Assembly: GCA_019746225.1 (NCBI GenBank)
Contig: JAIESE010000013.1
Location: 42,063-106,062, forward strand
Source: Alphaproteobacteria bacterium
GTDB lineage: Bacteria > Pseudomonadota > Alphaproteobacteria > Paracaedibacterales > VGCI01
Direction: 5' to 3'
DNA: 64,000 nucleotides
A program made the position numbers and the translations under genes. Shown one piece after another: positions 4,820-39,452 of this stretch (positions are counted from its first letter, which is position 1; every line of letters starts with the position of its first letter). The notes beneath the pieces are model-generated. The model made no database searches and was not told the origin of the DNA. It saw only the letters and a program-made list of their open reading frames with translations.

Positions 4820-7800
4820 TTAAAGAATGTTTTGAAGTTTTGCTTGAATTCTGGTTTTGTGGGAAGATTCTGGAAGACGAGCATTTATCACTTGCAAGGC
4901 TTGATTGAACAGAGCAATGGCTTTTTGATCCAGCTCTCGAGATTCAATAATATTCTTATTTTCTTCAGCACGCTTCGACTTTTTAAGACACAGCTGAGCC
5001 AAATCTTCTAGAATGAGATATTGTTCTGTGTGATCCGCTGCTTGGAATTTTTGTAAAGCCTTAAGCAAATATTTTTCTGCCTCATTAATATTGCCTTCCA
5101 ACAGATAAACTCGTCCTAAACCATAGACCACACGAGCCACTTCCAAATGGTCTCTACCATAATTCCTTTCATAGATGAGCAGGCACTTTTGAAAGAGTTC
5201 ATGAGCTTCTTTGTAGTTCCCAAGGTCTGCCTGAACATTGCCAAGATATACCTTGGCGCGCGCAACTTCGACATAATGATCAGGTAGGTTTTTGCTATAA
5301 ATGGCCAAGCTTTTCTCGAGATACTCCTTTGCGGTTTCATAATCTCCTAATGTTCTATGAACATTTCCTAAATGAGCCAATGACCAAGCAAAGGCAACAT
5401 GATTCACAGGAAGGTGAGCACTGTAGATTTTGAGGCTTTTTTCAAATAATTCTTTTGCTTTTGTAAAGTTGCCCAAATCTCTATTTACATTCCCGAGACG
5501 AGCGTAAATTCTCCCTATCTCAACTTGATTATCTGGCAGGTGCTTTTTGTATAGCTGAAAACTCTTTTCATACAACGCATGAGCTTGCATGTAGTTTCCC
5601 ATATCTTTATTTATATTACCTAAATTTGAGAGAGCCCATGCATAGGGAATGTAATTTTCCGGAAGATGACTTTGATAAATTAACAGACTTTCCTCAAGAA
5701 CTTCTTTCGCTTTGTCATATTCACCCACATTACGATAAATAATACCTAAATGAATTAAAACTTGGGTAATGCCCGTATAGTTTTGTGGAAGATGGTCGCG
5801 GTAAATACGAAGACATGCGTTGAGAATGGATTTAGCTTTTTCATAGTTTTCCAACTCACCCTGAATGATACCCAAATAGCTCATAGCTTTTGCAAGGCCA
5901 AGCTTATTATCAGGAAGATCCCTTTGGTAAATGAGGGTTGCTTCTGTCAGATGGTTTTTTGCTTCTTTAAAACTACCAAGGTCCCAACAAGCATTGGATA
6001 GGTAAACCAACGCTTGTGCAACACGAGACACGTTTGCATATGGTTCTTTATTGAGTTTTGCAAGACTTGTTTCGAGCAGTACTTTCCCGTGTTTATAATT
6101 TCCTAAAGTATAATATAGATTCCCAAGCTCACACTCTATAGAGCCCTCTATCGTAGGTGTTAAAAGGCTCTTATGAGATAAAATTCGCTCATAATGATTT
6201 TTTAGCACCCTCATTTGCTGAAGATCTTCTTTATCTTCAATAACTTGTGAATATTCTTCTAGTCTTTTAGAAATGTATTCAATATTATGATGTTTTTTTT
6301 CCAAATCTAATATTTTTGTCAAATAAGCTAATATAATCTCTTGCGTGCTTCTATGAATGTAATAGCTTGAACCAGATGTTGCTGAGCTGGATAAATCATT
6401 GTTGATAAGAGAATATTTTTTTAAATGATATATGAAATTATCAATAACGACATCACTTTTATACGCGTCTAATAAATCCTTTGAAATATTTTGAGAATCA
6501 ATCAAGCTTATAAGGAGTAAAAGATCGCCAAAATCCTTATGAATATCCATAAGTGACCGTACTGCGGCAACGATAATTCCATAACGAGTCTTAGAATACT
6601 CACTTCTATCTTGTAAGACATTTTTTTGAAGAAGTGAAAAATCTGCATTAGAAACATTTAGATGCTCAAGATACTTAATATAGCTAATGTTTGTTGCTTT
6701 TAAATAATAAGCCGCAATACAAATATCTAAAGGAAAAGGTGGAAGACTCTTTAAAAACGTTATGGTATGTTCTTTTAGAGGAGGTTTAAAGTCTTGTTTG
6801 CTACCTTCTTCCATAACCTTCATAAATAAATCTAACTTTTCATCCTCCTCGAGTTCGTCAACTTGTATGACATGATTGACATGTGTGTTACTTTGAATAT
6901 GAGTATCTCGCGTTGTAATTATTACTTTGCCTTTTCCCCAAAAGGTCGCATCATGTGGAAAATATTTGTGAATATCAGAAAATTTTTCGACGTTATCATA
7001 AAAAAGAAACCAATCAGCCCGAGTCTTTAGACGTTCTCTGACAAATTGGATAAGTTTTTCTTCCTTTTCTGTAGGGTCTTTAATGTTATTTAAAGCAGTA
7101 AATACCTCTTTATCTTCGCGTGTTTTTAAAAGGGCCCCTGCAAGCTTCTCGAAAGAATCTTTGAGACTTTCCATTGATTCTGCATTCAATTCCCATGAGT
7201 TATCATTCTCTTTCTGATCTAAATATTGACGAGCAAGGAAGGTTTTCCCAGCCCCTCCAGGGCCAACAAGAGCAACTGTTTGAATGCCACCTTCCCCCAT
7301 CAGTTTATCGCCTAATAATGACAATAATTTAGGTCGCTGAAGAGTTGATGATAGTGACGCCTTCCTCGTAGTTAACGGTGTAAGATATCTATTTTTACCC
7401 TCAAACAAGAGAAACCCAGCTCCTACCAAGCTCAAACTTAACAAACATGCTGCAGTTAGATATCTCTTCCTAGGTCCCCAGAAAAAACCATTTTTAGGTG
7501 AGGGTTCCTCTTTCTTTGCACCATTATCCTTTGGTTTTGAACGTGACGGGAACATTTGTGGCTCCTCTAAAGGAACATCATTTGCGGCAAAAGGCTTAAA
7601 CTCATGAATATAAGGATCGATATTTATTAAAGGATAAATTTTTCTTACAAGGTCAAAAAAGGAGAAAAAGTAATTAGATTGATCCAGAAAATGAAAGGGC
7701 CCCCTTTCATAGGATCTTTTTGAAAATGTCCGCTTTCCGTCTTCTAAAACTAGGTAATATACCCGTTGCATATCATTTTGAGTGGACGAAGTTAAAAATC

Positions 7801-8377
7801 TTTTTTCAGGGACAATTTGAGGATCATTCAAATACTTCTCTGTAAGGATACAAAGGATATTCTCTTTTGAATAAGAGTTGATAACCTTTTCAAGGTTAAT
7901 GAGATTTTTAAGGAGAGGATTTTCTTTTTGAAAAATTTCCATCCCAGCCAAACTTAAATGATATTTTATTTGGTCGAGGATGGCCCCCTTCTCTTTGTTT
8001 AAACTTGGATCATACAGGAGGACCAAAAAATCTTTTGGATTTATATGAGATATTTTTTTTAAGGTGTTCTCAAAATGAAAATTTGCCATTAGCTGTGAAT
8101 AATACGGCTTGAAATGTACGTATTGATCACAATTTTCTACAAAATCAATGATGCCTTCTCGAGAGTTGCACTCCAGCTTAAGCATTATGTTACGTATATG
8201 AGTATCAACTGTTCTGGAAGAGATGTTCAGAAAGAAGGATATCTTTTTAGATGCTCTGCCATTGAGTAAGCACGAAATAATATCTATTTCTCTTTGAGTG
8301 AAATTTATCCCTCGCATTGTTTGAAGATGCACAGAATAAAACTTATTCAACAATGTATAATTATCTTTGATTTTCAA
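4820..8377 (-). CDS. STAND regulator, copy A: N-terminal LuxR/GerE HTH, one hydrophobic TM-like helix, NB-ARC P-loop NTPase, C-terminal TPR array (1185 aa)
   Basis: HTH: FTQREIDIISCLLNGRASKKISFFLNISSRTVDTHIRNIMLKL. Hydrophobic helix: YLTAACLLSLSLVGAGFLLF (aa 306-325). Walker A: GPGGAGKT. Walker B-like: WFLFYDNVE. RNBS-B-like: GKVIITTRD. GLPL-like: LPPFPLDICIAAYYL. About ten 42-aa TPRs follow. The listed start is TTG, so the true start is uncertain (alternative Met21 at 8317). Confidence 0.9.
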   Translation of the reverse strand: MKIKDNYTLLNKFYSVHLQTMRGINFTQREIDIISCLLNGRASKKISFFLNISSRTVDTHIRNIMLKLECNSREGIIDFVENCDQYVHFKPYYSQLMANFHFENTLKKISHINPKDFLVLLYDPSLNKEKGAILDQIKYHLSLAGMEIFQKENPLLKNLINLEKVINSYSKENILCILTEKYLNDPQIVPEKRFLTSSTQNDMQRVYYLVLEDGKRTFSKRSYERGPFHFLDQSNYFFSFFDLVRKIYPLINIDPYIHEFKPFAANDVPLEEPQMFPSRSKPKDNGAKKEEPSPKNGFFWGPRKRYLTAACLLSLSLVGAGFLLFEGKNRYLTPLTTRKASLSSTLQRPKLLSLLGDKLMGEGGIQTVALVGPGGAGKTFLARQYLDQKENDNSWELNAESMESLKDSFEKLAGALLKTREDKEVFTALNNIKDPTEKEEKLIQFVRERLKTRADWFLFYDNVEKFSDIHKYFPHDATFWGKGKVIITTRDTHIQSNTHVNHVIQVDELEEDEKLDLFMKVMEEGSKQDFKPPLKEHTITFLKSLPPFPLDICIAAYYLKATNISYIKYLEHLNVSNADFSLLQKNVLQDRSEYSKTRYGIIVAAVRSLMDIHKDFGDLLLLISLIDSQNISKDLLDAYKSDVVIDNFIYHLKKYSLINNDLSSSATSGSSYYIHRSTQEIILAYLTKILDLEKKHHNIEYISKRLEEYSQVIEDKEDLQQMRVLKNHYERILSHKSLLTPTIEGSIECELGNLYYTLGNYKHGKVLLETSLAKLNKEPYANVSRVAQALVYLSNACWDLGSFKEAKNHLTEATLIYQRDLPDNKLGLAKAMSYLGIIQGELENYEKAKSILNACLRIYRDHLPQNYTGITQVLIHLGIIYRNVGEYDKAKEVLEESLLIYQSHLPENYIPYAWALSNLGNINKDMGNYMQAHALYEKSFQLYKKHLPDNQVEIGRIYARLGNVNRDLGNFTKAKELFEKSLKIYSAHLPVNHVAFAWSLAHLGNVHRTLGDYETAKEYLEKSLAIYSKNLPDHYVEVARAKVYLGNVQADLGNYKEAHELFQKCLLIYERNYGRDHLEVARVVYGLGRVYLLEGNINEAEKYLLKALQKFQAADHTEQYLILEDLAQLCLKKSKRAEENKNIIESRELDQKAIALFNQALQVINARLPESSHKTRIQAKLQNIL

Positions 8378-8589
8378 AGCCTTGCGCGCAACTCTAAATT
8401 GTATGGTTGGTCTTTGTTTATTGATTCAAACTCTATACAGTTTCTACCTGGTGGTCTACGTAATTTTTACATAGATGAAGTCAAATACGTTTTTTTTGGG
8501 TTAGATTATTTGTTTGTTACTAACGTAAATTAAGAAATGTAAGGTATGCAGTTATTTTACGAGCCAACTTGAATAAAAAGGAGAAAGTC

Positions 8590-11500
8590 ATGAAAAGAAA
8601 AGGTTTATTAATAAAAAGCTTGTTATTAAGTACCACGATTATGTGTGGACTCACTATGGGTGCACAACAGATACAAGAAGGCCTTGTTTATTATGGTGGG
8701 GATGGATTAACAGCACACCGAGAACAATTTACTATGGTAGGTAATCAAAGAGTGGAGCAACCCCATGGAGAATTGCCAGAACATAAAGGGTGTACGGTCA
8801 ACTATGTAGAAGCATTCTATAAGAACCAAGCCCCTATACCTTTGGCGAGACAGGGTGAGAATGCAGGAGGGTATAGATACGATGGATTTATAACAGATAA
8901 TTTCCACCCGACAATTCGAGCACAGCATCTCCTTTACAGCGACGGAGTAGATATCTATGAACCTCATGCTACGCAAGAATTGTGGACTCGTGGACAGGGA
9001 ACTCCTGGACAAGAGGATGTTCGTATTTTTATATCATCTCATAAAGATAGCCTTAAGTTGAACTGGACGCCAGGTATACGCATTGATACCCCCAATGGTA
9101 AATTACCAGCTGGCCTTTATCAATTTAGTTCATCAGAAAATTTAACTGAAGAAGTGCCTTACCATCAGAATAATGTTAACGGCGTAAGAACAAATTATTT
9201 TCGTAAGGAAAAATGGTCAAAAGTAGGAAGTGAGCAATCTTTTTACATAAACATGCCCTCGCATCACCTTGTCAGTGTTCCTGGAATGCCAGAATATATT
9301 CTTAATGAATTTCCTGAAGCGCCAAAAGATTTTGTTGATTTGAAAATGATAATTGATGCATTTGAACAGGCAGTGGCTAATAACCTAAATTTGCAACGTC
9401 CTGAGCAACGAATCATTTTTATTGGGGATGCCCGAGTCGGGAAAGACGCTCTTGCACATTATTATGCAGGTTCTGATTTATCGGTTGCGCTCAATAGGGG
9501 TTTTAGACCAGCGCGGGTTGAATTACAAGGCAATCCTCAATTAGGCTCATTAAGTGTTGTGTCTGGTATTATTGGCTCCCGAAATGTTGGCTCTTGGTTT
9601 GATCAAGCAGGCCAACGTGTCATTTGGACAACGCCTGGAGCTAATGGAATTGAAACCCCTTTGAATGATATTTTGAATGTTAAATCTCTTAAAACATTAT
9701 TAACAAAAAACAACCCATCAAAATACGTTTTAACCATTAAAGAGTCAGATTTATTTGAAGCAAATTATAAAAATCTAACTGAGGTTTTAATAAGGTTATC
9801 GCGCATGTTTGGGTATCAAGTACGGGAAGATGGTACCGTTGATATGGGGATAAATAATGATTTAAAAAATGCGCTTTCACTTGTCGTATCTCAAACTGAT
9901 CGTATGAATCAAGGTGACTTGGTTGATGGAGTCTATTTAGACCAAAATGGAGTTCAGCAGCCAGTCAAAGGCATATTACGAAATATTTTAGAAGTCATGC
10001 AAAGTGCACCTTTGAACTATGATGCTGGCGGCATGGGCATCTTGGAATATTTAGTAAATCATCCTGAACGTGTTTCTTTCTTCTCTTTGCCAAATCTCGC
10101 CAATGCACTCTATGAACCTAGAGATCCCCTCAACACAAGAGAATCCATTCAACAGAGTATAGATGTAGCAAATGGAAACGAGTCGCGTTATATGGCAGTC
10201 CAAAACCCAGCTGATATTCATATTGTTTTTAAAGAAGAATCAAATACATTCATTAAACAAGTATTGGATAAATTAAATAATCAGGTGACAAAATACTTAA
10301 GTGAGGACGCAGTTGAAACAATATGGAATCTTTGCAATCAAAAAATACTTGGGCATGAAGGAACCGTAGATGAACTTCGTGATAAGCTTCTAGCTTTCTC
10401 TAATAAGTTTAACAACGCTAACACGCAACCTCTAGACGATTTTGTGCGGGACATTGAGAGTCTAATAGGTACGAATGGAATCACAAGGAATATAAATCAT
10501 ATACGCTATTTACAAGAAAAGTTGGGTATAAATACCAATTATGCTCGCGATCAGTGGCTTGCTCCGTTGATGTCTGTCATGAACAACATTCGTTACTTAA
10601 GCTCAAAAAATGTAGTCGATGGAAGTCAAAATTTAGATACATTAAATGGAATTAACTATATTTTTGATAGCCAAAATAAAGAATTAACGCTTGTTGGCTA
10701 CTTACTTGGCATGACCGATGTGAAGAAGTTTGTAGAAAATAATCTTACGCGTAGTGGAATTACAGGCCTAACTCCGAATACTGAAATACGAAAACTCAAT
10801 CTCCTATCTCTACGAAATTTGTTAGCAGATGGTAGTTTAAGTTTGAAAGAAGCAACGGTCGTTGGAATAACACCCGAAATAGTTCAGACAACCCAGTCTG
10901 TCACGCTCGATCTTTCTGCTAGAGCCCATCCATCTATGAGTAAGGCTGCCAATGATCAAGTTGGAACGCCAGGTCTTCCCGGAAGAAACGGTGGAAGCTT
11001 AGTCTTATTAGCAAATAAATTTACTGATGCCTATAAAGTAGCCCACCCACAAAATCCAACCACATTTGAAATTAAGAAAGACGGGGGGTCGGGACAAAAC
11101 GGCCAAGAAGGGGCAATAGCACATCGGTGCCTACACCAGCGGATGGTACTACGGGAGATTGGAACGAGCATAGTTCTACGCCGGTTTCCGTAGGTCGAGG
11201 AGTAGATGATCCTGAAAAAAATAGATATTATGTGTCTGCATTGAAAGTGAAGGGTGGAACTGACGAAGATAGAAAGGGAAATCCTATTCCATGGTATAAA
11301 GCCCATTTGAGCATTGATTATACTAAGAAAGAGTATAAACAGGCAGGCATAAAAGGGACTAAAGGTAGCAATGGTAAGAATGGCGGAGCCAAAGGACTAA
11401 AAGGGCATCAAGGTCTTTTAGTTGTGGATTGTCCCAAAATAAGCCCTATCGTCGCAAGCAATCCACCCCAGGATGGGTCTGATGGAAGTGGGGGTAGCGG

Positions 11501-11882
11501 TAGCGCAGGAGGGCTCGGAGGACGTGTTAATTATAAAATTACGTACAATTATCGGCCAGGTAAATATGATCATAATGGTACAGAAATTTGGGCTAATGCT
11601 GAGGATGGAACAAGCCATTTAGGAGATGGGGGTAGGTATAGAGAGGATGGTCCTCGTCTTCTCGACAATGAGCGTGGACCTTTAGGTGATCCTGGGGATG
11701 CTGGGACTTCAGGAGCCAATACTGCTGGTCAAGTTGCTCCATCCCCCCAAATTACCGCTGACCAATTGGAAACATTAAAGACCAATAAGCTACAACTTTA
11801 TAGCACCCAATATTATGCACTTGCCGTAGATCCTGTTAAACAAAAGCTTCTCGGTAAATTTACAAACATTCCGGCCCAATAA
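8590..11882 (+). pseudogene. Signal-peptide P-loop-GTPase-like / glycine-rich (collagen-like) protein, copy A, split by a -1 frameshift
   Basis: Two overlapping ORFs, 8569-11193 (frame 1) and 11127-11882 (frame 3), together are colinear with the intact paralog 27154-30033. ATG at 8590 follows AAGGAG. Signal peptide: MKRKGLLIKSLLLSTTIMCGLTMGA. The Walker A is degenerate: GDARVGKD versus GRTGSGKS in copy B. Gly-rich tracts include GTPGLPGRNGG, DGGSGQNGQEG, GIKGTKGSNGKNGGAKGLKGHQG and DGSDGSGGSGSAGGLGG. Confidence 0.75.
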
Positions 11883-11939: not shown

Positions 11940-14900
11940 ATGAAGTACGTAGTATCTAATAACTCAGTTCACAAGGTATTCACTTTGAAAGGATGCGTTA
12001 CAAGAATTGTCATTCTTTCTCAAATAAGCTCCCATATTGCTGGAGCTATGGAAGAAGCCTTAACGGATAATCCTGTTAAGGTGTCTTCATCTTCCACTCT
12101 CGCGTATGGATTTTCTGCTTTTCCAACCAACAAGTACATTGAGACTCAACAGCAAGCTCTTAATTATTTTGGGTCACTTGATTTAACTCCAAAAGATATA
12201 CTTATATTTCCTGCGCCAATAGCACAAGCTCTGATTGTCAATCGGATTGAAAGTGGACAACCATCTAATATTGCGGGTTCAATAAAATCAGATGAATTAT
12301 CCTCCATGATGTTTAAAAATCCAAAAGGGTTTGTTATAAACAACCCTTTAATTAGCAATGTTTTAGACCTGGATTTCGTAGCTCAAGCCGATGAGTATTT
12401 TGATAACTATTCGAAAGAACGAGGTGCGATAGAAATAAAAAGCACTTCTCTTTCAAGTGGCGAACGTTTAGAAAACTTACGCCTTAAGGCTGAGTCTATC
12501 TGCATTCAAGAATCTGTTCTAGATCCATTAAATTCACTATCTATTGAGTTGCTAAAGGGAGATAAGGATCGGCTTTTGTCTAATGCCGATAAAAAACAAG
12601 CATTATACATAAATCCAAACACGATCTTGCGGGCGGCAAAACTATCAATTCATTCCCACAATCAGTTGCCCTTAATAATCGAAGGTGTTTTACAGAGTAC
12701 CGGCGGAAATATTGAGATCTTTTCAGATGGAGATATTGTGCTTCATAACGTTTCTTGTAGTGGAAAGCTGATTATTCATACTAATGGAAGGGTTATTTTT
12801 GAAAATGATGCTGCCGTAATTGGTGGTGTGGAAATACATGCTTTATCTTTCGAGAACAAAGGACGCCTCATAACTAAGGGTAATATGGATTTTGGAAAAA
12901 CCCAAATCATCAACAAAGGTCTTCTGCAGACTGAAACAGACATTTCTTCTGAGACATTACATAATAGTAAATCTGGTCATATAATCGCCAGAACCCTTGA
13001 TAATCTTATGTCTATTTTGCCCCATAATGAAGGAACGATAGAATTTTTAGATGCATGTACATTAAATGGTGAACATTCGCTCGATCTGAAAGGAACTTTG
13101 GTCGTCAACGGCCTTCTAGATTGTCAATTATCCGGTGTTGACTCCACGCTTACTTTAAGAGAGGGCAGTCAAGTAAAGGCGTTAAAAGGTGCGACTGTCA
13201 AACTTCATACTCTCACTAATCATGGAAAGTTGAACATTACCGGAGAAAATCTAGGATTATATCTCACATGTTTAAATAACTTTGGGGATATTGAATCAGT
13301 AAACGGCACTTACGGTGAGGTATTCAAGTTAGTAAATAGCGCCACCATCCGCACGCTTGGCCATTCTACGCTTAACTGTACAACCGTTGAAAATAAAGAA
13401 TCCGGCAGGTTTTATACGGCAGGGGTTCATCATGTTAATGTGACGGGAAGTTATCTTGACTCAGGTTATGTTTATTCTCCCACATTATTTTTGCTACAAG
13501 GGGCTTATCTTCAATTTCTTCCTCATCACCAATCATTTATTGCTAATGGGGTTATTAAAGCGACGCAGAAGTTAACGGTTGCTTCAGAAGCAATTTTGAA
13601 CATGAGACACCGTCTGCAATTTTACTCTGATAACACGATTGTCCATCAAGGTGTAAATAATCAGCTCCAAGAATATCACAAGTCTGATGAGGATGCTCTT
13701 TATGACACTTACTATTTGCTCAACCCAGATTTCATTGCGCCCAGATGGGAGCGGAATGTTTTTAAAGCTTACGTTAATACGTTTTTAACAGGGCATTGGG
13801 GGGACTATTTAAGAAATTTGCTTAAAGAACCTTATGGCATTGTAACAATGGCCCGGGGCGATCTCACACGACGGGGCAATGACAATATCCAAGCGGGAGG
13901 TTCACGCTATACAACTTTTGGTCAATTTAAAGGGAGCAAATCTTATATAAAAACGGGATATTTCCCAGATAATCATGCCCAAATACAAGCAGATAGTGGC
14001 AACTTTTCAAATGTTACCTTAAATGCTCTTGGGGGAAAGGTTGCTGTGAAGTTAGATAAGGATATGGAAGCAAAGAAATTTCACGCTCAAGCAAAGACTA
14101 TTGCTGAGTTAAACGTAAGGGGCTCGATGAGTCTTAAAGATGCATCCATTGCAGCCAGACTAGTCAGTTTAGAGGCTCAAAAAGATATGCAGATGAACAC
14201 TGTCACGTTACAAGCCCAAGATCATATCCATGCTTCGACTCCCGGTAAATTTCAAGCTTCAGATTTACAATTGAAAGGCGGTGCAACGACACACATAGAA
14301 GGGGATCAAGGTATCCACATACAAGGATTGCAGAATCAAAACAAAACAAGATTGAAATCATCTAAGCAAGTAATATTAGACAAAGAGGCTAAAGGAGGTG
14401 AGTTAAGCATTGAAACAACTGAAAACTTTACCAATAACGCTTCTGTTGAAGTTGATAAATTTTCCCAGAGCAGTCTCCATTTTCAAAATAATAAAAAGGT
14501 TGTAGCGAAAGGTACCCTGAAATCAAAAAGCCAAACCTATGGCGATACAGAAGAAGCTATGTTGGAAGGTTCTGAAGTAGTGCTTGATGCGCCTTTAACA
14601 AGAGGAGGATTTAAGGGAATAGTTAAAGCGGATATGGCTGAAATTCTCCTAAAAGATATGCAGCTGCAAGAACTTTTACGGCACATAGATATTCAAAACA
14701 CATTAACCTACACAGTTGATGATCATCTGGTAGTTGATGAGGATATTATCATAAAATGCAAGATGGTATTGCACGCAGTAGGTCTAGAAAATAAGTCAAG
14801 GATTACAGCAGATAAGAACTTTTTGTCATTTATAAAAAGAAATATCTTGAATGGTGGTCTCTTTCTTGGTCAAGGTTCCGCATACTTTGAAGCCGGAGGT

Positions 14901-17900
14901 GCTTTTACTAACACTGCCCAGTTAAAAGCAAAAGAAGGTTTAGGGGTCAAAGCGGCCCAAATATTAAATAAAGGTGACGAAAAGCTTCCTGCGGTAATGG
15001 AAGGCCAGGATATTTCGTTAGAATCTACCCAAGGCAGCATTGAAAGCCAGTACGGACAATTTAGGGCAAAACAATCATTTCAAGCTCGATCGGCTCGCGA
15101 TACAACTCTCGATGCTTCAGAAGTTGACGCTGGTCAATCCATAAACATTACCTCGGCACGCGATACTTTGATCCAATCCGTTGTTAAGAGACTAAAGTCT
15201 GGTGAGGGAAACTATAAAGATATTGCTGTCCGTTCATTGCTTAATTCTGGCGGATCAATAGCTCTTTTATCGGGTAACAATACAACTCTTATTGGGGCAA
15301 GATTAAAGGCAGCGCTTGATATTGGAGTTGCTGCACAGAATGTTTATAGCTTAGCTTTAGGATTAGAAGAACAAGAAACACACGCTATTACTGACGGTTC
15401 TCAGACAAAGTATAAGCTGACAAATGATGTCAGTCAGATACAGGCAGGTGGAAATGTTGGTATTCATGCAAAAGGCATGAACTACCACCAGGCAACAGAT
15501 ATTGTCGCACAAAATTTGTCATTGCTGGGTCAAGATGTTGTGATCGATGACGTTACGGATAAGTTTTACTTATCGGAAACCACAAAGCATGAAGGTGGAT
15601 TGTTCGGTCAAAATACTGAACAACAGATGCAACGGCAAGAAAGTACATCAAGAGGTGCTAATTTCAACGTTTTTGAAAGAATAGGAGTGAAGGCATTAAA
15701 TAGTATTTCTGTAAAAAATATAAAATGCCAAGCTCAAGAGACCATTCTAGATTCTCCAGAAGTTAAAATTTTGTTGGGGCGTAACGAAATGCAATCCGCA
15801 TCAACAGAAAAGAGCTCCAATGTTTTATGGGTGCGAACCACACAATCCTCCGATGAAAAATTAGATCATCAGGCTTCTGAGTTTAAGGGAGCCGTTAAAA
15901 TCAATGCTAAAAACGCAATGATAGAAAGAGTTGCAGGCCAAACTCTGGGTTTTATGAAGACCTTGTCGGGAGATATACAAAATCTATCCGAATCAGAAGT
16001 CGTTGATTACTATAATAGAAAATCGAAAACAGTCGAGGGGCCATCTCAAGCCTTCGCCATGGTAATTGCTCTAGCTGTCTCAATGACAGGTGTTGGCAGT
16101 GCTTTGGGTGCAGCGCTCGTTGGCACAACATTGTCAACTACTCTCGCGGGAACAATGGTATCCGCTGCTGTGACAACTCTATGTAGTCAAGCAGCGGTAC
16201 AGCTTATAGCTGCCAAAGGCAATATCATACAAGCAGCAGAAGCCATGGCAAATACTAAGGTTCTTGAATCTATGGCGCTGAGTGCGATAACTGCAGGGAT
16301 TACAAGTCAACTTTGTGACGTATTGCATCTTCAGTTAGACCCCATAAAAAAGAATTTATTTGACAATATAAAACAGAAAGGTGTTGAGAATGTAGTAAAT
16401 CTAGGGGCTAATATTGTTCAAGGGGGAGATGCCGATATAGCCCTTCGCAATGCTGCAGTTTCGACAGTAGTTGGGGCTTTGAGTGCATCAGCCGCGTATG
16501 AAATTGGAAATGGGTATTCGCATAACCATGTTGATCCAGTAACTCATAAATTATTGCATGCTGCTTTGGGTGCAGCTTCAGGAGCTCTACAAGGAGATGA
16601 CCCCGCTAAAGGAGCCCTAACTGGAGCCATAAGCGCTACGGTAGCTGTGACTGTTACAGATATTATTCAAAAGGACTCAAAATCAGTTGCCAAAAGGGCT
16701 CTAGATAGAGCTGAAAGAGAAAATATAGAAACAACGCCTGAGAATATGCGCGCTCTTATTCGTCAAGAAATACAAATGACCGGGGCTGGTGGAAAAATTA
16801 CAAGCGCTATTACGGCAATGCTTTTAAAACAGGATATGAATATAGCGATCGGAGCCTCTACGAATGCAATAGAAAATAATTGTCTGGAATCAATGGCTGC
16901 GCTTGCACTCCACGAGGCCAATGTCATGGCTGAAGCTAGACAAAGTGAAGGTACTGGGAAAACGACTCTATTTGAGAAAGACCGAGAGGATACTGAATGG
17001 AGTGGAGAAATTCCTTCTAAAGCACATGTTGGCATTGAGGGGGAAAAGTCTTATGTCGCTCATTATATAGCGGGCAAAAAAGCGCAATATGAGCATGATG
17101 GAAAATCGTGGGGTGAAAAAGAAATAGCACAAGCCCGTAAGGAGGCAGAAACTGAATTAAAAGGCATTGAGCAAGTTACATGGCATGAAGATGTTTTGTT
17201 AGGAGGGGCAAATATTGCGCGCAAAGCCGGTGCACATGGTTTAAAAGCAGCGGGAACCTACACTGCAGAAAAAATTCGAGAATTTGCCAAAGGGAAAGTT
17301 CAAGAGAAGGTTCAGGAGATATTAGTAGGTGAAAGTTGCTTAGATGCTGGCCAGTTTGTTGAAAGGGAAGCCCACAACCTTGGTGCAAGTGATAAAATGG
17401 CTAAAGGGCTCGGGGCAGCGACAGAACAGGGTTGTGAGCTATTCGTTTCCAATGCAATAAGCAAAGCAGCTTCGGGAGCCCGCTCATCCTCATCAGATAT
17501 CCCTCATATAGAGGCGATTTCATCAGATCATGATCAAGTTGCGCATAAAGGTTATTACGGACGAAAAGCAGATAGGGCTGAAAAACATAAATGGGATAAG
17601 GCGGTAAATGAGGCTCAACCAGCAGTATACAGCAAACATCAAAAAGCGACAACGCGAGAAGAAGCTGAAAGATTGGCACGTCCTGGAAAACCATCACAAT
17701 ATTTTCCAGGTCAAAATGTAGAAGATTTGGAAAGGGAAGCTTTAAAAAGGGGAGCAAAACTTCCTGATCTTAAAGACAAAGGAAGCACTTATGTTGAATA
17801 TGCTTTTCCTTATGAGATTGGAGTTGCTAATGGAAAACCTACTAAGAGCATACGGGTTGAAATGACAAATTCTAGTGTTCCCGAGTTTCATGGACATCCC

Positions 17901-17918
17901 AGACCTGAAAAAAAATAA
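11940..17918 (+). CDS. TpsA/CdiA-like filamentous-haemagglutinin-family exoprotein with an ENN-delimited C-terminal toxin region (1992 aa)
   Basis: An AAGGAGG RBS is present. The TPS-domain-like segment is ALIVNRIESGQPSNIAGSIKSD..MFKNPKGFVINNP (compare ILNRVTG..S.I.G and the NPNGI motifs). A long beta-helix-type repeat region follows. A Gly/Ala-rich helical DUF637-like segment is GPSQAFAMVIALAVSMTGVGSALGAALVG... A VENN-like motif, STNAIENN, lies at nt 16866-16880 and is followed by a 345-aa C-terminal region. Confidence 0.85.
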   Translation: MKYVVSNNSVHKVFTLKGCVTRIVILSQISSHIAGAMEEALTDNPVKVSSSSTLAYGFSAFPTNKYIETQQQALNYFGSLDLTPKDILIFPAPIAQALIVNRIESGQPSNIAGSIKSDELSSMMFKNPKGFVINNPLISNVLDLDFVAQADEYFDNYSKERGAIEIKSTSLSSGERLENLRLKAESICIQESVLDPLNSLSIELLKGDKDRLLSNADKKQALYINPNTILRAAKLSIHSHNQLPLIIEGVLQSTGGNIEIFSDGDIVLHNVSCSGKLIIHTNGRVIFENDAAVIGGVEIHALSFENKGRLITKGNMDFGKTQIINKGLLQTETDISSETLHNSKSGHIIARTLDNLMSILPHNEGTIEFLDACTLNGEHSLDLKGTLVVNGLLDCQLSGVDSTLTLREGSQVKALKGATVKLHTLTNHGKLNITGENLGLYLTCLNNFGDIESVNGTYGEVFKLVNSATIRTLGHSTLNCTTVENKESGRFYTAGVHHVNVTGSYLDSGYVYSPTLFLLQGAYLQFLPHHQSFIANGVIKATQKLTVASEAILNMRHRLQFYSDNTIVHQGVNNQLQEYHKSDEDALYDTYYLLNPDFIAPRWERNVFKAYVNTFLTGHWGDYLRNLLKEPYGIVTMARGDLTRRGNDNIQAGGSRYTTFGQFKGSKSYIKTGYFPDNHAQIQADSGNFSNVTLNALGGKVAVKLDKDMEAKKFHAQAKTIAELNVRGSMSLKDASIAARLVSLEAQKDMQMNTVTLQAQDHIHASTPGKFQASDLQLKGGATTHIEGDQGIHIQGLQNQNKTRLKSSKQVILDKEAKGGELSIETTENFTNNASVEVDKFSQSSLHFQNNKKVVAKGTLKSKSQTYGDTEEAMLEGSEVVLDAPLTRGGFKGIVKADMAEILLKDMQLQELLRHIDIQNTLTYTVDDHLVVDEDIIIKCKMVLHAVGLENKSRITADKNFLSFIKRNILNGGLFLGQGSAYFEAGGAFTNTAQLKAKEGLGVKAAQILNKGDEKLPAVMEGQDISLESTQGSIESQYGQFRAKQSFQARSARDTTLDASEVDAGQSINITSARDTLIQSVVKRLKSGEGNYKDIAVRSLLNSGGSIALLSGNNTTLIGARLKAALDIGVAAQNVYSLALGLEEQETHAITDGSQTKYKLTNDVSQIQAGGNVGIHAKGMNYHQATDIVAQNLSLLGQDVVIDDVTDKFYLSETTKHEGGLFGQNTEQQMQRQESTSRGANFNVFERIGVKALNSISVKNIKCQAQETILDSPEVKILLGRNEMQSASTEKSSNVLWVRTTQSSDEKLDHQASEFKGAVKINAKNAMIERVAGQTLGFMKTLSGDIQNLSESEVVDYYNRKSKTVEGPSQAFAMVIALAVSMTGVGSALGAALVGTTLSTTLAGTMVSAAVTTLCSQAAVQLIAAKGNIIQAAEAMANTKVLESMALSAITAGITSQLCDVLHLQLDPIKKNLFDNIKQKGVENVVNLGANIVQGGDADIALRNAAVSTVVGALSASAAYEIGNGYSHNHVDPVTHKLLHAALGAASGALQGDDPAKGALTGAISATVAVTVTDIIQKDSKSVAKRALDRAERENIETTPENMRALIRQEIQMTGAGGKITSAITAMLLKQDMNIAIGASTNAIENNCLESMAALALHEANVMAEARQSEGTGKTTLFEKDREDTEWSGEIPSKAHVGIEGEKSYVAHYIAGKKAQYEHDGKSWGEKEIAQARKEAETELKGIEQVTWHEDVLLGGANIARKAGAHGLKAAGTYTAEKIREFAKGKVQEKVQEILVGESCLDAGQFVEREAHNLGASDKMAKGLGAATEQGCELFVSNAISKAASGARSSSSDIPHIEAISSDHDQVAHKGYYGRKADRAEKHKWDKAVNEAQPAVYSKHQKATTREEAERLARPGKPSQYFPGQNVEDLEREALKRGAKLPDLKDKGSTYVEYAFPYEIGVANGKPTKSIRVEMTNSSVPEFHGHPRPEKK

Positions 17919-18079: not shown

Positions 18080-19267
18080 TTAAGAGGACGCTCTACCTGC
18101 TTTATTACTTCTGGAACTGATTGCTTGCGCCTTATTTCCAAAAAACTCCGCAGCCTGTCTCAACGGTGCATCCGCTAGATGTGCATATCTTTGTGTCGTT
18201 GAGGCTTGGGTATGTCCTAGTAGTTTCCCAACAATACTCAAACTTAACCCACTGGAAACCAGGTGCGAAGCATGGGTGTGTCGTAAATCATGAAGACGAA
18301 CGTTTTGTAGGCCGGCCTTTGTTTGAATAGTCTTCCAGGCTTTTTTAATATCTTGGAGGGACTTTCCATGAACTCTTCCAGGGAACAAATGGTCATCCCT
18401 GCTTATTTCTTTCATGCCCTTTAAGAGTGTAATAACTTGAGAAGAAAGGGGGAGATGTTCCATACGATTTTGTTTGGTTGTATGGGCCGGCTTCGTCCAA
18501 ATGCCTTTCTCCAAATCGAATTGATCCCATGTAGCACTTAAGACTTCTCCGCGCCTGGAGCCTGTGAGCACAAGCAACCAAATGGCGTTAGCAACATTTT
18601 GATTGTGATAGGATTCAAGTGAGCCCCATAATTTTTCGAGCTCAACTTCATCAAGCCAGCGATTGCGTTTTTGTTCCTGGTATTTTTGAACACCATTCAC
18701 AGGATTATCCGTGCGCCATTTCCATTGGATAGCGATATTGAGCATTTTGCTTAATAATGCCCGAACACGATTAGCCATGTAGGGGGTGTCCTTTAGCTCA
18801 TGATGTAAATGTTGAATATCTTGTGCTGTGAGTTCCTCAACTTTTTTGTCAGCCCAACGTTTAAGAATAATTCCTTCAAGCATCTTTTCGTCTTCCCGAT
18901 AGCTCTTTGGTCTTTTGTTGGTTTTGGCATAGAACTCTAAATATTCCTTGGCAAGATCCGCGAATGATGGTTTGATTCTCCTCGCCTGTACCTCTTGTGA
19001 TGGATCGCCCCCTTTGGCTACATCACCTAAAAGTCCTTTGGCAATTTCACGAGCTTGCTCTGCGGTAACCGCTCCATGAACGCCGATCTTTTTGCGACGT
19101 GTCCGGAAAAATTCATTACGATATTGCACAAAATATGTCTTGCGACCTGTTGGGTAAACCCTTACACCAAACCCCCTGATCTCAGAATCCCAAACAAGCA
19201 GTTCCTCACTCTTATCTGGCTTAATGCTTTCAACAACCCACTTGGTTAGCTTCCTGCCGTCTTTCAT
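18080..19267 (-). CDS. int: P4-type tyrosine integrase (395 aa)
   Basis: The N-terminal arm-binding-type segment is GFGVRVYPTGRKTYFVQYR. The catalytic-region motifs are LHDLRHTHASHL (HxxR) and LLGHTQASTTQRYAHL (catalytic Tyr). Confidence 0.95.
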   Translation of the reverse strand: MKDGRKLTKWVVESIKPDKSEELLVWDSEIRGFGVRVYPTGRKTYFVQYRNEFFRTRRKKIGVHGAVTAEQAREIAKGLLGDVAKGGDPSQEVQARRIKPSFADLAKEYLEFYAKTNKRPKSYREDEKMLEGIILKRWADKKVEELTAQDIQHLHHELKDTPYMANRVRALLSKMLNIAIQWKWRTDNPVNGVQKYQEQKRNRWLDEVELEKLWGSLESYHNQNVANAIWLLVLTGSRRGEVLSATWDQFDLEKGIWTKPAHTTKQNRMEHLPLSSQVITLLKGMKEISRDDHLFPGRVHGKSLQDIKKAWKTIQTKAGLQNVRLHDLRHTHASHLVSSGLSLSIVGKLLGHTQASTTQRYAHLADAPLRQAAEFFGNKAQAISSRSNKAGRASS

Positions 19268-23520: not shown

Positions 23521-26500
23521 TCACACTTGGACCTTAGCTAGCTTTTCTTTAATTTTTTTTATATGGGCAGAATCTTCTGGGAAATGAGCTTTTACAATAT
23601 CATAGGCTTGTTTTAGGTAGTTATAGGCTTGATCTCTAAAGAGACCTTGAGTGTTTACAGTCAATGAAGCCTTTTTGAAATAGAGGTCGCCTAGGCTTTC
23701 AAGAGCTGCATATTTTTCAGGATGGTTGTTATTTTGATAAATCCCTAAAGCTTTAGATAGGAAATTATTAGCGTTATCCAATTCTCCTTCCATAAGATAG
23801 ACTCGACCAAGATCCAATATAATATGCGCTAAGAATATATTGGATTCACCATGGAGACTTTGATATACAACTAAAGCTTCTTTAAGAAGGGTTTTTGCTG
23901 TTATATAATTCCCTATTTCTCCCTCAAAGATACCTAAATTCACCTTGGCATTCGCAATTCTCATCGTATTTTCAGGGCAATATGCCTTATACATTTCTAG
24001 GGCGTTTTTAAGCAGGGGTTTAGCTTTTTCAAACTTTCCCATTTTTCGGTAAATGTTTCCTAGATTTGTTAAAGCAAAAGCTACCGCCGAATTATTCTCA
24101 TATTTATCCTTTTTATAGATTACAAGTGACTCTTCGAGTAATTTTGCAGCTTCCTCATAGTTGCCGAGGTCACCATGAGTTATCCCCAAAAGAACTAGAA
24201 TATGAGCAACCTTGAAATGAACTTCAGAAAAATTTCGTTTGGAAATCTCAAGGCTTTGTTCTAACAGATCTCGTGCTTTCTTATGGTTTCCAAGATAAGA
24301 ATGCACAATCGCTAAATGTGATAATGGTGTTAATGGTTCAGATAATAAGAAATCTTCTTTGGGAGATTGATGCTTGTTTATATCAATACACATTTCAAGT
24401 AGATTTTTGGCCTGACCATAATCGCCTAAATCTCTATAAACATTCCCCAAATAAAAGAGGGACCGACTATATTCTAATTGATTGTTGGGGAGATGGTGTT
24501 TATAAAGTGAAATGCTTTTCTCGAGGCTATCTTTAGCCGCTACATAATTACCTAAGGTCCGGTATGTATTTCCTAAAAAAGACAAGGTTCTGGCAAGAAG
24601 CATATCATCTTTATTTTTGAGAGAATTCAACGTAGCGATATTTTTTTCTAAATATATTCTAGAGTTTATATAATCGTTTAAAATAAAGTACATATATCCT
24701 AAATTTGTGGCCAACGTCGCCTTATTAGATTCATTTAATAAGTGATTATGGGTTAGAAATTTTTCTAAATGTTCTTTAAAGCGTCTTATCTTTATCGTAT
24801 TTCCCTTTTCGATTATATCATTTGTATGTACTTCTAAAACATGAGAAATATTTTTCAAAATTTCATTGTTGCTATCCAGTCTAACTCTTCTTGAAATATA
24901 GGCTAAAATGATCTCTTGTATCGAACGGTGAAACGATAATGTGGCTTCACTAGAATCAGAAGATGTATCTGTAACAAGAGAGTACTTTTTTAAATTATAA
25001 ATGAAATTATCAACAATCGTATGGTCTTTGTATTTTACTAACAAGTCTCTAGGTATATTTTGGGAATCAATAAGACTGACCAACAAGAGGAGATCTCTAA
25101 AATCGTTGTTTGTATCTATAAGTTTGTTAAGAGACAACGCAACGATCCCATATCGCGTCTTGGTGTAATCCCCTGCTTCCTTTAAAAGGGATTCTTGGAC
25201 TATTGTGAAATCTTGATTATCGTGAGTTAGGTTATCAAGATATTCTGAGTAGGTAATATTTGTGGTTTTTAAATAATAAGCCGCAATGGATACATCAAGA
25301 GGAAATGGGGGAAGCTTTTCAAGGAATATCTTTGCTTCTTCTGTCTGTGCGTGTGAAAAAACGTTTTCCTTTCCCCCACTCATAATCTTAGAAAAAAGAG
25401 CCAGTTTTTGCTGAGGGGTAAGTTCTTCGATTTGGAGTGTGCTACCAATATGCTTATTGTTTTGAATGTTGCTGTCCCGTGTTGCAAGAATAACTTTCCC
25501 CTGGCCCCACGTGGCAGAATCTTGAGGAAAGTGTGTTTGAATATCTGAAAACTTTTCCACGTTGTCAAAGATAAGAACCCAATCTGAATGTGACCTCAAG
25601 CGCTCTTTTACGAATTGGGTGATCCTGTCTTCTCTTTTATTCATAGGCTTTATATTTTGAATCTCTTTTAGGAGTTTTTGATCTTCATCAGTCTGAGCGA
25701 GAGCTTGGGATAAGGCTTCAAATGATGAATTAAGCATCTCATGAGTTTCTGCATTGATTTCCCAAATAACATTAGCTTTTTGTGCATGGGCAAATTGCCT
25801 TGCTAGGGTCGTCTTTCCTGCTCCTCCCGGTGCTATGAGGGCGATGGTTTGTATGCCCTTTTGTTCCGTAAGCTTCTTCTCTATCTTGGCAAGAAGCTCT
25901 GGTCGTGAAAGAAAAGATGACTCTGATGGAATAGCTAAATCTGAACGAATAACCGTTTGTCTTTGAGCTGTATAATAGTAGCCCCATTTATAGATCAGTA
26001 AGCCAGTACATGATAACATTATCAGAACAAGCAACCCAAAGAGAGCAAGCCAACTTCTCCGTTTCGACAAACTCTTGATACTCTTCTCTTCTTTTGTAGG
26101 AGTTTGAAGAAAGGAAGTTTTACCTTTCTGATCAAGCTTTGTGATGAGATCATCGAAATTAAAACCTGGAAAGAGGACCTTTAAAATCTCAATCAATGAG
26201 GCTAAATATGTCTTTTGGTCCAAGGAGAGAAGAACTCTTTTCTTTTTATCAATCACAAACAAAAGGGCATTGGTTGAACTTTCATTTTGGTCTTGTGACT
26301 CCTGAGATGCCTTTATACCCTCATTTTTTTCAAGTTCTTCTCTAAGGATGTTTGGAATAACATAAAGAGCATACCTTGAAGTGAGAGATTGTATCTCTTT
26401 CATAAGAGAAGACATTGTACATGGAATACAACGAGTCTCAAGTGTAACAATCACCCCAGCAGCTTTGAGAGGCTGTTCCAGTTGAGAAATGTCAGAGCTT

Positions 26501-26862
26501 TCTGTCCAAAGAATTAGAGAACACGATGGTCCAACGTCACCAACTTTTTTAGAGACTTCTTTTAGCTTCTGCTCAAAGGCAAATTGACAAACAAGTTCTG
26601 AATAATGCTGTTTCAAAAGATGAACTTTATCTGAGGCTTCAAGAAAGTCAATGATGCTCTCACGAGAATTGCACTCAAGCTTTATAGAGATGTTATGAAT
26701 ATAGTTTTCAACGGTTTTGGGAGAAAGTGACAAAAAAGAGGCTATTTTTTTAGCCGTCCTACCACTCAAGATACAGGCAAGAATGTCAATTTCACGGGGT
26801 GTAAATTTAATTCCATTTATTGAGCCTGCTTCAAGGATAGTTTTATGATTCATGTCTGTCAT
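23521..26862 (-). CDS. STAND regulator, copy B: LuxR/GerE HTH, TM-like helix, NB-ARC, TPR array (1113 aa)
   Basis: HTH: FTPREIDILACILSGRTAKKIASFLSLSPKTVENYIHNISIKL. Hydrophobic helix: WLALFGLLVLIMLSCTGLLIY (aa 271-291). Walker A: APGGAGKT. Further motifs: WVLIFDNVE, GKVILATRD and LPPFPLDVSIAAYYL. A TPR array follows. Confidence 0.9.
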   Translation of the reverse strand: MTDMNHKTILEAGSINGIKFTPREIDILACILSGRTAKKIASFLSLSPKTVENYIHNISIKLECNSRESIIDFLEASDKVHLLKQHYSELVCQFAFEQKLKEVSKKVGDVGPSCSLILWTESSDISQLEQPLKAAGVIVTLETRCIPCTMSSLMKEIQSLTSRYALYVIPNILREELEKNEGIKASQESQDQNESSTNALLFVIDKKKRVLLSLDQKTYLASLIEILKVLFPGFNFDDLITKLDQKGKTSFLQTPTKEEKSIKSLSKRRSWLALFGLLVLIMLSCTGLLIYKWGYYYTAQRQTVIRSDLAIPSESSFLSRPELLAKIEKKLTEQKGIQTIALIAPGGAGKTTLARQFAHAQKANVIWEINAETHEMLNSSFEALSQALAQTDEDQKLLKEIQNIKPMNKREDRITQFVKERLRSHSDWVLIFDNVEKFSDIQTHFPQDSATWGQGKVILATRDSNIQNNKHIGSTLQIEELTPQQKLALFSKIMSGGKENVFSHAQTEEAKIFLEKLPPFPLDVSIAAYYLKTTNITYSEYLDNLTHDNQDFTIVQESLLKEAGDYTKTRYGIVALSLNKLIDTNNDFRDLLLLVSLIDSQNIPRDLLVKYKDHTIVDNFIYNLKKYSLVTDTSSDSSEATLSFHRSIQEIILAYISRRVRLDSNNEILKNISHVLEVHTNDIIEKGNTIKIRRFKEHLEKFLTHNHLLNESNKATLATNLGYMYFILNDYINSRIYLEKNIATLNSLKNKDDMLLARTLSFLGNTYRTLGNYVAAKDSLEKSISLYKHHLPNNQLEYSRSLFYLGNVYRDLGDYGQAKNLLEMCIDINKHQSPKEDFLLSEPLTPLSHLAIVHSYLGNHKKARDLLEQSLEISKRNFSEVHFKVAHILVLLGITHGDLGNYEEAAKLLEESLVIYKKDKYENNSAVAFALTNLGNIYRKMGKFEKAKPLLKNALEMYKAYCPENTMRIANAKVNLGIFEGEIGNYITAKTLLKEALVVYQSLHGESNIFLAHIILDLGRVYLMEGELDNANNFLSKALGIYQNNNHPEKYAALESLGDLYFKKASLTVNTQGLFRDQAYNYLKQAYDIVKAHFPEDSAHIKKIKEKLAKVQV

Positions 26863-27153
26863 ATATAAATGATCTACTCAATATAATATAAATTAAAAGT
26901 TCCATTATGTTCCAAAGTGCCTTTATCCTGAATTATTAGCCAAAACCTTAGATAATATGTAAGAACATAGCCGGTTATTTTTAAGGGTATTTTATACCCT
27001 GAGGCCTCCTCAGAGGAGATATTCCGGATAAACTTCAGACAACTCCTCACATAGGTTTGTAATGCTTCTTGTGCTTCATTGCAACTCACTTGCTACCTTT
27101 GCATGAAAAACAAGTAGCTAAACTGACTTAACTTACATAGGAAAGGAAATGCT

Positions 27154-38923: not shown

Positions 38924-38927
38924 TTTT

Positions 38928-39452
38928 CTAATCCTTTCTAGCTTTCTCGATAGATATCTGTACTGTATCAGCATCTATTTCTGTGGGTTGCTTTTGCGGA
39001 GAAGATGAATTGTGAGGTTTTTTTATTTCTTCTCTATTATAATAATCGCGGCGAAAATAAAGAGATCTTATTGGGTCAAAGAACCACTCATCTGTGACAT
39101 TAGATTTATGCTGCTTTACATGCTTAATAGGTGAGCAAGAGTCTTGTTTATCTTGATCGAACAAAAGAACCGGGGAGAAAGTTTCTTTTGGTTCTTGTTT
39201 GTTAAAACTACCATTTGGCACGTAGCCTTTGTTCCACGCTGCGGTTAGAGCAATATCGGGATTAGGATTTACTGCTGATGAATAAAACCGCCGATGCATT
39301 CGAGTGCCATGAAATGACCGGATAAAGAGTTTCGATGAGCCTATGAAAACTTGTTCTAAACGGTCCACAGCAAATGCTTTTGGAGTTACAACACTTGCCG
39401 TTGCGATTCCTATGAGTCCAAAACAAAATTGAATTTTAAGTTGTTTAATCAC
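38928..39452 (-). CDS. Secreted hypothetical protein (174 aa)
   Basis: It has a GTG start after GGGAGAAA. Signal peptide: MIKQLKIQFCFGLIGIATASVVTPKAFA. Confidence 0.6.
   Translation of the reverse strand: MIKQLKIQFCFGLIGIATASVVTPKAFAVDRLEQVFIGSSKLFIRSFHGTRMHRRFYSSAVNPNPDIALTAAWNKGYVPNGSFNKQEPKETFSPVLLFDQDKQDSCSPIKHVKQHKSNVTDEWFFDPIRSLYFRRDYYNREEIKKPHNSSSPQKQPTEIDADTVQISIEKARKD

Follow-up and report, generated by a model that had tools for sequence, protein, structure and literature searches.

Two paralogous STAND genes in the window

The 64,000-nucleotide stretch of DNA analysed here (the window; contig JAIESE010000013.1, from an alphaproteobacterium of the Paracaedibacterales) carries two full-length paralogous genes for STAND proteins, referred to as copy A and copy B, in which a LuxR-type DNA-binding domain is followed by an NB-ARC ATPase and a tetratricopeptide repeat (TPR) array. 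One strongly hydrophobic segment lies between the DNA-binding domain and the ATPase, and its analysis suggested that both proteins may be membrane-tethered regulators with the NB-ARC–TPR part facing the periplasm. The features of the two genes were as follows.

23521..26862 (-): copy B gene, open reading frame (ORF) of 1113 amino acids (aa), with helix-turn-helix (HTH) / alpha-beta domain / predicted transmembrane helix / NB-ARC / TPR
26644..26805 (-): copy B LuxR/GerE HTH, aa 20-73 (Pfam GerE, E 1.3e-13, 50.8 bits, cutoff 23.5)
26110..26607 (-): copy B middle alpha/beta domain, aa 86-251, weakly TIR-like (AlphaFold)
25990..26052 (-): copy B predicted transmembrane signal-anchor helix, aa 271-291, WLALFGLLVLIMLSCTGLLIY (translation, hydropathy)
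25240..25893 (-): copy B NB-ARC NTPase, aa 324-541, with Walker A APGGAGKT at aa 344-351 (Pfam NB-ARC)
23563..24765 (-): copy B TPR sensor array, ~aa 700-1100 (Pfam TPR_12/TPR_10)
4820..8377 (-): copy A gene, ORF of 1185 aa, paralog sharing the copy B architecture
7403..7462 (-): copy A predicted transmembrane helix, aa 306-325, YLTAACLLSLSLVGAGFLLF (translation, hydropathy)

Copies A and B were 36% identical in the family alignment. In copy A, the GerE HTH spanned aa 26-79 (51.0 bits, cutoff 23.5) and NB-ARC aa 355-545; NB-ARC was matched with 48 bits against a cutoff of 23.5 in both copies, and TPR_12/TPR_10 arrays lay in the C-terminal third of each (Pfam). The AlphaFold full-length model of copy B had a mean predicted local distance difference test score (pLDDT) of 84.8. 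An identical protein to copy B (P0001) was found by protein search on a JGI metagenome contig, and the family is annotated publicly only as 'tetratricopeptide repeat protein' or 'CsgD family regulator'. In the family alignment, conservation of the HTH was among the highest, with column identities reaching 80-100% in the HTH and NB-ARC blocks.

A single hydrophobic segment conserved across the family

The initial annotation, made from the sequence of the window, had assigned one hydrophobic segment of approximately 20 residues to each copy, and reverse-strand translation together with a hydropathy scan recovered both at exactly the coordinates given: each follows the basic cluster that had been described (SKRRS in copy B, GPRKR in copy A) and sits between the DNA-binding domain and NB-ARC (Pfam, hydropathy). 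The maximum of the Kyte-Doolittle 19-residue mean (KD19) was 2.65 in copy B and 2.17 in copy A, with next-best windows of 1.21 or less, and the summed dG on the Hessa biological scale was -3.5 and -0.9, respectively. Maxima of shuffled sequences reached the observed score in 24/2000 cases (1.2%) for copy B and 185/2000 (9%) for copy A. Since shuffles of long Leu/Ile-rich proteins match the score this often (1-9%), a single protein is weak evidence for a helix; chance is therefore excluded by the conservation in the family, not by one protein.

A protein search gave 532 relatives, the best 120 of which were ~40% identical over their full length, and a second, independent set consisted of 79 further full-length representatives. 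When a segment was called at KD19 of at least 1.6, exactly one was present in 113/120 of the best homologs and in 72/79 of the further representatives, among which two segments were found in 0/79; pooled, 185/199 full-length homologs (~93%) had one segment and none had two. A weaker segment occupied the same position in 4 of the best 120, and a polar linker replaced it in P0105 and P0113 of the same set. Helix-less full-length members amounted to ~7/199: P0105, P0113, P0135, P0152, P0223, P0250, and P0255. The two that were inspected, P0105 and P0113, kept an intact Walker A and nested beside helix-bearing paralogs at 47-51% identity, which indicates secondary loss of the helix.

In the family alignment, the segment columns were fully occupied with an identity of only 20-40%; such columns, in which hydrophobicity is kept while the sequence mostly is not, are what a helix facing lipid would be expected to show. 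The uncharged stretch had a median of 21 residues (10th-90th percentile, 18-26), a length that fits a single span. The re-entrant anchor that had been offered as one way out of the topology is thus unlikely, because a hairpin would need more than a median uncharged stretch of 21 residues. In the outer half of the helix, a small-x-Gly-hydrophobic motif was present in 36/113 proteins, compared with 13.9 ± 3.3 in shuffles, and this enrichment hints at helix-helix packing. From the end of the segment to Walker A there were 46-69 residues (median, 57) in the 111 homologs with a recognisable Walker A. Behind the helix, the family alignment contained a short polar linker and a strongly conserved IRSDLxIPxES..LxRPEL block, which may correspond to the hhGRExE element of STAND proteins; the P-loop follows.

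In the AlphaFold full-length model of copy B, helix 270-297 was isolated between linkers with pLDDT below 50 (251-271 and 292-301) and was unpacked against the HTH, the middle domain, and NB-ARC. A second pass that would return NB-ARC to the cytoplasm, named beforehand as one observation that would overturn a one-span topology, was found in neither A, B, nor the family homologs by the hydropathy scan. By all bioinformatic properties, the segment is a genuine single-pass signal-anchor, and its insertion into the membrane is predicted.

Orientation of the predicted helix

Charges were counted over the 15 residues before and after the helix. The means were 3.95 for K+R and 0.69 for D+E in the N-terminal flank, and 2.28 and 2.03, respectively, in the C-terminal flank; K+R was higher on the N-terminal side in 82 proteins and lower in 10, and the same bias was found in the independent set (53 and 5 proteins, respectively). 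Copy B had six flanking K+R on the N-terminal side and three on the C-terminal side. Many members carried a basic amphipathic stretch just upstream of the helix, such as IFNFLQKKKR or LFLILKRR. Because K+R were enriched in the N-terminal flank, the positive-inside rule supports an orientation in which the HTH side would be cytoplasmic and the NB-ARC–TPR side translocated. In type II signal-anchor proteins, a folded N-terminal domain of 270 residues cannot be translocated once the anchor leaves the ribosome. When the N-terminal 300 residues were used to look for relatives with other C-terminal domains of known compartment, as an independent indication of topology, the search gave no more than 13 sequences, all short fragments or truncated members of the family. 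In the family homologs, cysteine fell three-fold, from 1.60% before the helix to 0.52% after it, which is the direction expected of exported domains and is suggestive.

The NB-ARC–TPR module

The nucleotide-binding motifs were strongly conserved in the family alignment: Walker A GxGGAGKT (G347, G349, and K350 invariant; T351 conserved in at least 90%), Walker B LIYDN (D433 and N434, at least 90%), the TTR sensor motif ILTTRD (T460 and T461, at least 90%), the GLPL-like motif PPFPLD (P521, L522, and D523 invariant), and the MHD-like SxHRS (H645 invariant). Judged by sequence, nucleotide binding is under selection and the ATPase is alive. Since the NB-ARC motifs are intact, nucleotide must be available wherever the module sits.

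The best NCBIfam match was the TPR protein of the FxSxx-COOH system (NF040586; E 1e-62, profile positions 4-337 on aa 313-662), with scores of 212.9 and 200.4 bits below the curated cutoff of 300, and AfsR and MalT were matched weakly. A sequence search of the PDB with the NB-ARC region gave no match. The best Foldseek matches of the TPR array were peptide-binding TPRs, LGN/Pins, and kinesin light chain. PADLOC assigned no defence STAND family, the generic TPR model PDLC01169 alone being matched, and by this comparison the family does not belong to the catalogued anti-phage STANDs (Avs, bNACHT, and others).

The middle alpha/beta domain

The region between HTH and helix, for which an alternating beta/alpha-like pattern and a TIR- or receiver-like fold had been suggested by eye, was modelled by AlphaFold (aa 86-268) using a 34-sequence alignment cut from the family alignment. 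A confident alpha/beta domain was obtained: pLDDT 78, predicted template modelling score 0.73, and the order a-b-a-b-a-b-a-b-b-a-a. A Foldseek search against the PDB returned nothing at E < 1e-3, the best matches being generic three-layer sandwiches (the FolD N-domain and the anticodon-binding domain of class II aminoacyl-tRNA synthetases) with TM-scores of 0.3-0.37. In a search of the family profile against the PDB, positions 24-101 aligned in register with the start of SARM1 TIR (PDVFISYRR... / LLKVHLQLHGFSVFID...) at a marginal E of 0.056-0.09. Pfam TIR_2 and SEFIR were each matched in 1/34 members (E 0.006 and 0.016, respectively), and downstream of the third strand, where the catalytic Glu of TIR would lie, column identity was 0-30% and several members had a deletion.

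Response_reg was matched in 0/34 members even at E of up to 10 (Pfam), and the first strand, CLIVYW, lacked the acidic pair of receivers; a receiver (CheY-like) identity was ruled out on these grounds, so that only the TIR half of the early guess retains some weak support (SARM1 at E ~0.06, in register). By profile search, 820 representative proteins contained the domain (576 at E of 1e-10 or lower); the best 150 of these all had the present architecture or were shorter fragments, and the domain started near residue 91 in most of them. Taken from the sequence profile and the model, this region appears to be a real alpha/beta domain and possibly a degenerate, non-catalytic relative of TIR.

Host lineage and possible ATP supply in the periplasm

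The family was found at 294 or more loci in a genome scan, 77 of which were kept. Named sources were Ca. Paracaedibacter symbiosus, Ca. Odyssella thessalonicensis, Ca. Caedibacter acanthamoebae (chromosome and plasmid), and Caedibacter sp.; further sources were metagenome-assembled genomes (MAGs) of Paracaedibacteraceae and of unclassified alphaproteobacteria and, by protein search, Ca. Odyssella acanthamoebae. Ten of the 77 kept loci came from the MAG of Alphaproteobacteria bacterium 41-28. One MAG each of Parachlamydiaceae (L034), Bacteriovoracaceae (L021), and Flavobacteriales (L032/L037) also contained members, and either horizontal transfer among amoeba symbionts or faulty binning might account for these. 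Among the named matches, the family is thus essentially confined to Paracaedibacteraceae/Holosporales endosymbionts of protists (amoebae).

Amoebae and other protists harbour Paracaedibacteraceae/Holosporales as obligate intracellular symbionts (PMC11909080), and Wang and Wu reported that an ATP/ADP translocase of the plastid/parasite type, which imports host ATP, is vertically inherited in this lineage (PMC4198247). Since the translocases that import host ATP are located in the inner membrane, ATP must cross the periplasm. The premise of the initial annotation that ATP is not expected outside the cytoplasm consequently fails as stated for this lineage.

Divergent neighbours and the surrounding region

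Both STAND copies are transcribed divergently from paralogous genes for exported proteins, with the following features in the window and at other loci of the family.

27154..30033 (+): copy B neighbour, exported P-loop (GTPase-like) protein with a Gly/Pro-rich C-terminus, signal peptide MKRYYLLLSALLTQTTPVLS, P-loop GRTGSGKS
8569..11193 (+): copy A neighbour, exported-protein paralog, 22% identical, with the degenerate P-loop GDARVGKD
26863..27153: divergent intergenic region of cassette B, 291 bp, presumed promoter/operator
8378..8568: divergent intergenic region of cassette A, 191 bp
L001:225-2720, L002:522-3140, L009:3299-5680, L020:3247-5709, L046:4560-5633, L028:3314-5776: exported-protein homologs

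Homologs of the neighbour lay 215-370 bp divergently upstream of STAND genes at L001, L002, L009, L020, and L046, one of these five loci being in Ca. Paracaedibacter symbiosus, and kept both signal peptide and P-loop; at a sixth locus, the homolog was on the same strand as the STAND gene. The Sec signal peptide of this exported-protein family had the consensus MKxKHLxLLxxLLSQxxPxWA, the C-terminus was Gly/Pro-rich and collagen-like, and neither Pfam nor NCBIfam contained a match for the family. The STAND gene and the exported P-loop gene form a recurrent two-gene cassette in a subset of the family, and the product of 27154-30033 is a candidate regulatory target or periplasmic partner of copy B. 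Other P-loop proteins beside family genes also carried Sec signal peptides, so exported NTPases recur in these genomes.

The intergenic region of cassette B contained a perfect 7-bp inverted repeat, AGGGTATtttATACCCT, at 26984-27000. The 8-mer GGGTATTT occurred in 4/7 homologous intergenic regions, which was not above the shuffled expectation, and in a search for a shared operator across these seven divergent regions exact 7-/8-mers were no commoner than in shuffles.

A 251-aa ORF at 11127-11882 (+) overlaps the 3' end of the 874-aa gene 8569-11193 in another frame; it may be a frameshifted continuation, in which case the copy A neighbour could be a pseudogene. Directly downstream of cassette A, 11940-17918 (+) encodes a 1992-aa exoprotein resembling two-partner-secretion proteins and filamentous haemagglutinin, with a TPS domain (aa 75-141) and DUF637 (aa 1406-1561). 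A tyrosine integrase (Phage_integrase and Arm-DNA-bind_3) is encoded between both cassettes at 18080-19267 (-), and the region may be a genomic island.

The window as a whole (39% GC; leucine-rich repeat (LRR) and TPR proteins, a porin, the integrase, and the exoprotein) resembled an endosymbiont genome. TPR-only ORFs at 47-1237 (+; 396 aa) and 47672-48904 (-; 410 aa) may derive from a sensor array as remnants or be free-standing relatives of it, and a 237-aa protein with a C-terminal GerE HTH is encoded at 49979-50692 (+). LRR proteins at 34082-35326 (-), 38213-38974 (-), and 45770-46609 (+), amid many ORFs without a Pfam match, represent the eukaryote-like repeat proteins that intracellular symbionts typically encode.

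Neighbours varied at other loci and included lasso-peptide-like genes, a giant NB-ARC protein, and mobile-element genes. The gene L012:2636-5410 (-), next to a family member, encodes 924 aa with signal peptide, AAA ATPase domain, and Sel1 repeats and represents a second kind of predicted exported ATPase in these endosymbiont genomes. Asparagine-synthase-like and transglutaminase-core genes, a pairing of the lasso-peptide type, were located divergently upstream at L033:2642-4438 (-), L044:4565-5344 (-), and related loci, and a radical-SAM gene was downstream of other members (L025:9742-10656). Directly downstream of a further member, L059:9417-15404 (+) encodes a protein of at least 1996 aa with a second NB-ARC, HEAT repeats, and DUF7779, which belongs to a cluster of 16 ORFs from 12 loci.

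Predicted topology, mechanism, and alternatives

We propose, with a probability of roughly 0.5, that copies A and B are bitopic, membrane-tethered one-component regulators of the ToxR/CadC style, with an NB-ARC–TPR sensor that faces the periplasm. A ToxR/CadC-like layout, already raised in the initial annotation, was the reading best supported by sequence (single helix, no second pass, charge bias, and intact motifs) and would entail a periplasm-facing STAND module.

In the mechanism that we envisage, the folded N-terminal part, comprising the LuxR-type HTH and the weakly TIR-like alpha/beta domain, would stay in the cytoplasm, and NB-ARC–TPR would be threaded through Sec to face the periplasm. 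There, the TPR array would bind a periplasm-accessible ligand, either a host-derived peptide or protein fragment or the adjoining exported P-loop protein, upon which NB-ARC would swap ADP for ATP, supplied by host ATP en route through the inner-membrane nucleotide translocases, and oligomerise along the periplasmic surface of the inner membrane. The nucleotide-binding oligomerisation domain (NOD) modules of STAND oligomers have converging N-termini. The NB-ARC ring would bundle the transmembrane helices, so that the alpha/beta and HTH domains on the cytoplasmic side meet on DNA, the divergent promoter next to the gene being the likeliest site. That a periplasmic STAND ATPase is charged by host ATP and signals through the helix to the TIR-like domain and LuxR HTH by oligomerisation is put forward tentatively. 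Such a host-ATP-charged receptor would amount to a Toll-like-receptor-style layout fused to a transcription factor, possible only in an ATP-rich intracellular niche, a view that we hold with slightly less than even confidence.

Several observations weigh against a periplasmic sensor. To our knowledge, no periplasmic STAND or NB-ARC has been described, and the NB-ARC–TPR module of the TPR_12 type is typical of cytoplasmic proteins, with the FxSxx-COOH TPR protein as its nearest relative; since helix-less relatives with intact motifs exist, the module is evidently able to function there. The flanks of copy A contained four K+R on each side, giving no orientation from this copy alone, and the C-terminal flank of the family still averages 2.3 K+R. 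Post-helix cysteine counts were even in 57 proteins and odd in 55, without the even-number bias that would mark periplasmic disulfides, and the three-fold depletion of cysteine after the helix has no control set. The taxonomic restriction, in turn, could be a mere lineage-specific expansion.

The alternative that survives best keeps both halves in the cytoplasm and regards the helix as a peripheral or monotopic anchor, or as a self-association helix, of a GutR/AfsR-like regulator at the inner face of the membrane. NB-ARC would then remain where ATP is certain, in agreement with the resemblance of NB-ARC–TPR to cytoplasmic families and with the helix-less paralogs, and if the middle domain is TIR-derived, the ancestor was probably a cytoplasmic TIR–NB-ARC–TPR protein. 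On the other hand, the segment is uniformly hydrophobic over ~21 residues and bounded by charges, unlike amphipathic in-plane anchors, and is too short for a hairpin; no charge asymmetry is predicted by such an anchor, whereas 82 versus 10 proteins was observed, and the signal recognition particle is expected to capture a segment of this type co-translationally. We consider this explanation unlikely, at perhaps one chance in four or five.

The proteins might also be latent membrane effectors, namely cytoplasmic STANDs of the Avs/bNACHT kind, the TIR-like domain and helix of which damage the membrane only upon activation. TPR-STANDs with N-terminal TIR or transmembrane effectors are known in bacterial immunity, and the marginal TIR similarity, the many paralogs per genome, and the mobile-element and integrase neighbours are compatible with this idea. 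It is nevertheless improbable: PADLOC gave generic TPR matches only, the LuxR HTH ranks with the best-conserved parts of the protein, little conservation remains where the catalytic Glu of TIR would lie and some members have a deletion there, and the helix has no intramolecular shielding in the AlphaFold model.

Still less probable are effectors exported by the symbiont and anchored through the helix in a host membrane, which would suit an endosymbiont rich in eukaryote-like repeat proteins (the LRR and TPR ORFs of the window) with neighbouring genes for exported proteins, but the strongly conserved HTH is of the bacterial LuxR type, the helix is hydrophobic enough for the bacterium's own inner membrane, and no secretion signal was identified. 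A chance compositional feature without a membrane role, for which the shuffles that reach the same window score could be cited, is effectively refuted by the position conserved in 185/199 homologs sharing only ~40% identity.

Comparison with known systems

The absence of ATP from the periplasm is a textbook constraint of the bacterial envelope, and STAND/NLR-type switches are regarded as strictly cytosolic. One assumption must therefore break: either a conserved 21-residue helix does not span the membrane, or an NLR-like ATP-dependent sensor works in the periplasm. If the predicted topology is true, this family would contain the first extracytoplasmic STAND, and an intracellular lifestyle would have relaxed a basic compartment rule. 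With ~800 representatives at the 50% identity level and at least ten paralogs in one MAG, its members would then be the main candidates for host-sensing regulators of Holosporales endosymbionts, the host-interaction mechanisms of which are still poorly understood according to a recent review (PMC11909080). No published description of this architecture was found in the literature.

Similar to ToxR, CadC, and VtrA, the family has an N-terminal DNA-binding domain (cytoplasmic in those proteins and predicted so here), one transmembrane helix, and a C-terminal sensor, and a presumed target or partner gene adjoins (cadC-cadBA, toxRS, and vtrAC). However, ToxR and CadC contain an OmpR-type winged helix, whereas the family contains a LuxR/GerE-type HTH and an extra cytoplasmic alpha/beta domain, and their sensor is small, ATP-independent, and periplasmic, in contrast to the ~820 residues of NB-ARC ATPase and TPR on the sensor side of the family. 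Because the DNA-binding fold differs, the family is not a member of the ToxR/CadC group, and the resemblance, drawn by analogy, would be functional.

GutR from Bacillus subtilis, AfsR, and MalT combine, as does the family, an HTH, a STAND NTPase, and TPR-type sensor repeats, and GutR has them in the same order: HTH, NB-ARC, and TPR. The logic expected of these proteins is ligand-triggered, nucleotide-dependent oligomerisation that activates transcription. They are soluble and cytoplasmic, without a membrane helix or middle alpha/beta domain, whereas the family is predicted to possess both; the FxSxx-COOH TPR protein (NF040586) shares NB-ARC–TPR but lacks the HTH, the middle domain, and the helix.

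In TIR–NB-ARC–repeat proteins (plant TNLs and bacterial TIR-STANDs), a TIR domain is N-terminal to NB-ARC, as the possible TIR-like domain is here, but the TNLs have no membrane helix between the two, and the TIR similarity of the family is marginal (E ~0.06) with an unconserved catalytic Glu region. Toll-like receptors place repeats outside, one transmembrane helix, and TIR inside, to which the family would correspond if its C-terminal part faces out; they have no NTPase, whereas the family has NB-ARC. The family may thus be described as known kinds recombined: its domains are ordered as in GutR and its logic is that expected of AfsR/MalT, but a membrane helix and an extra domain appear to have been inserted.

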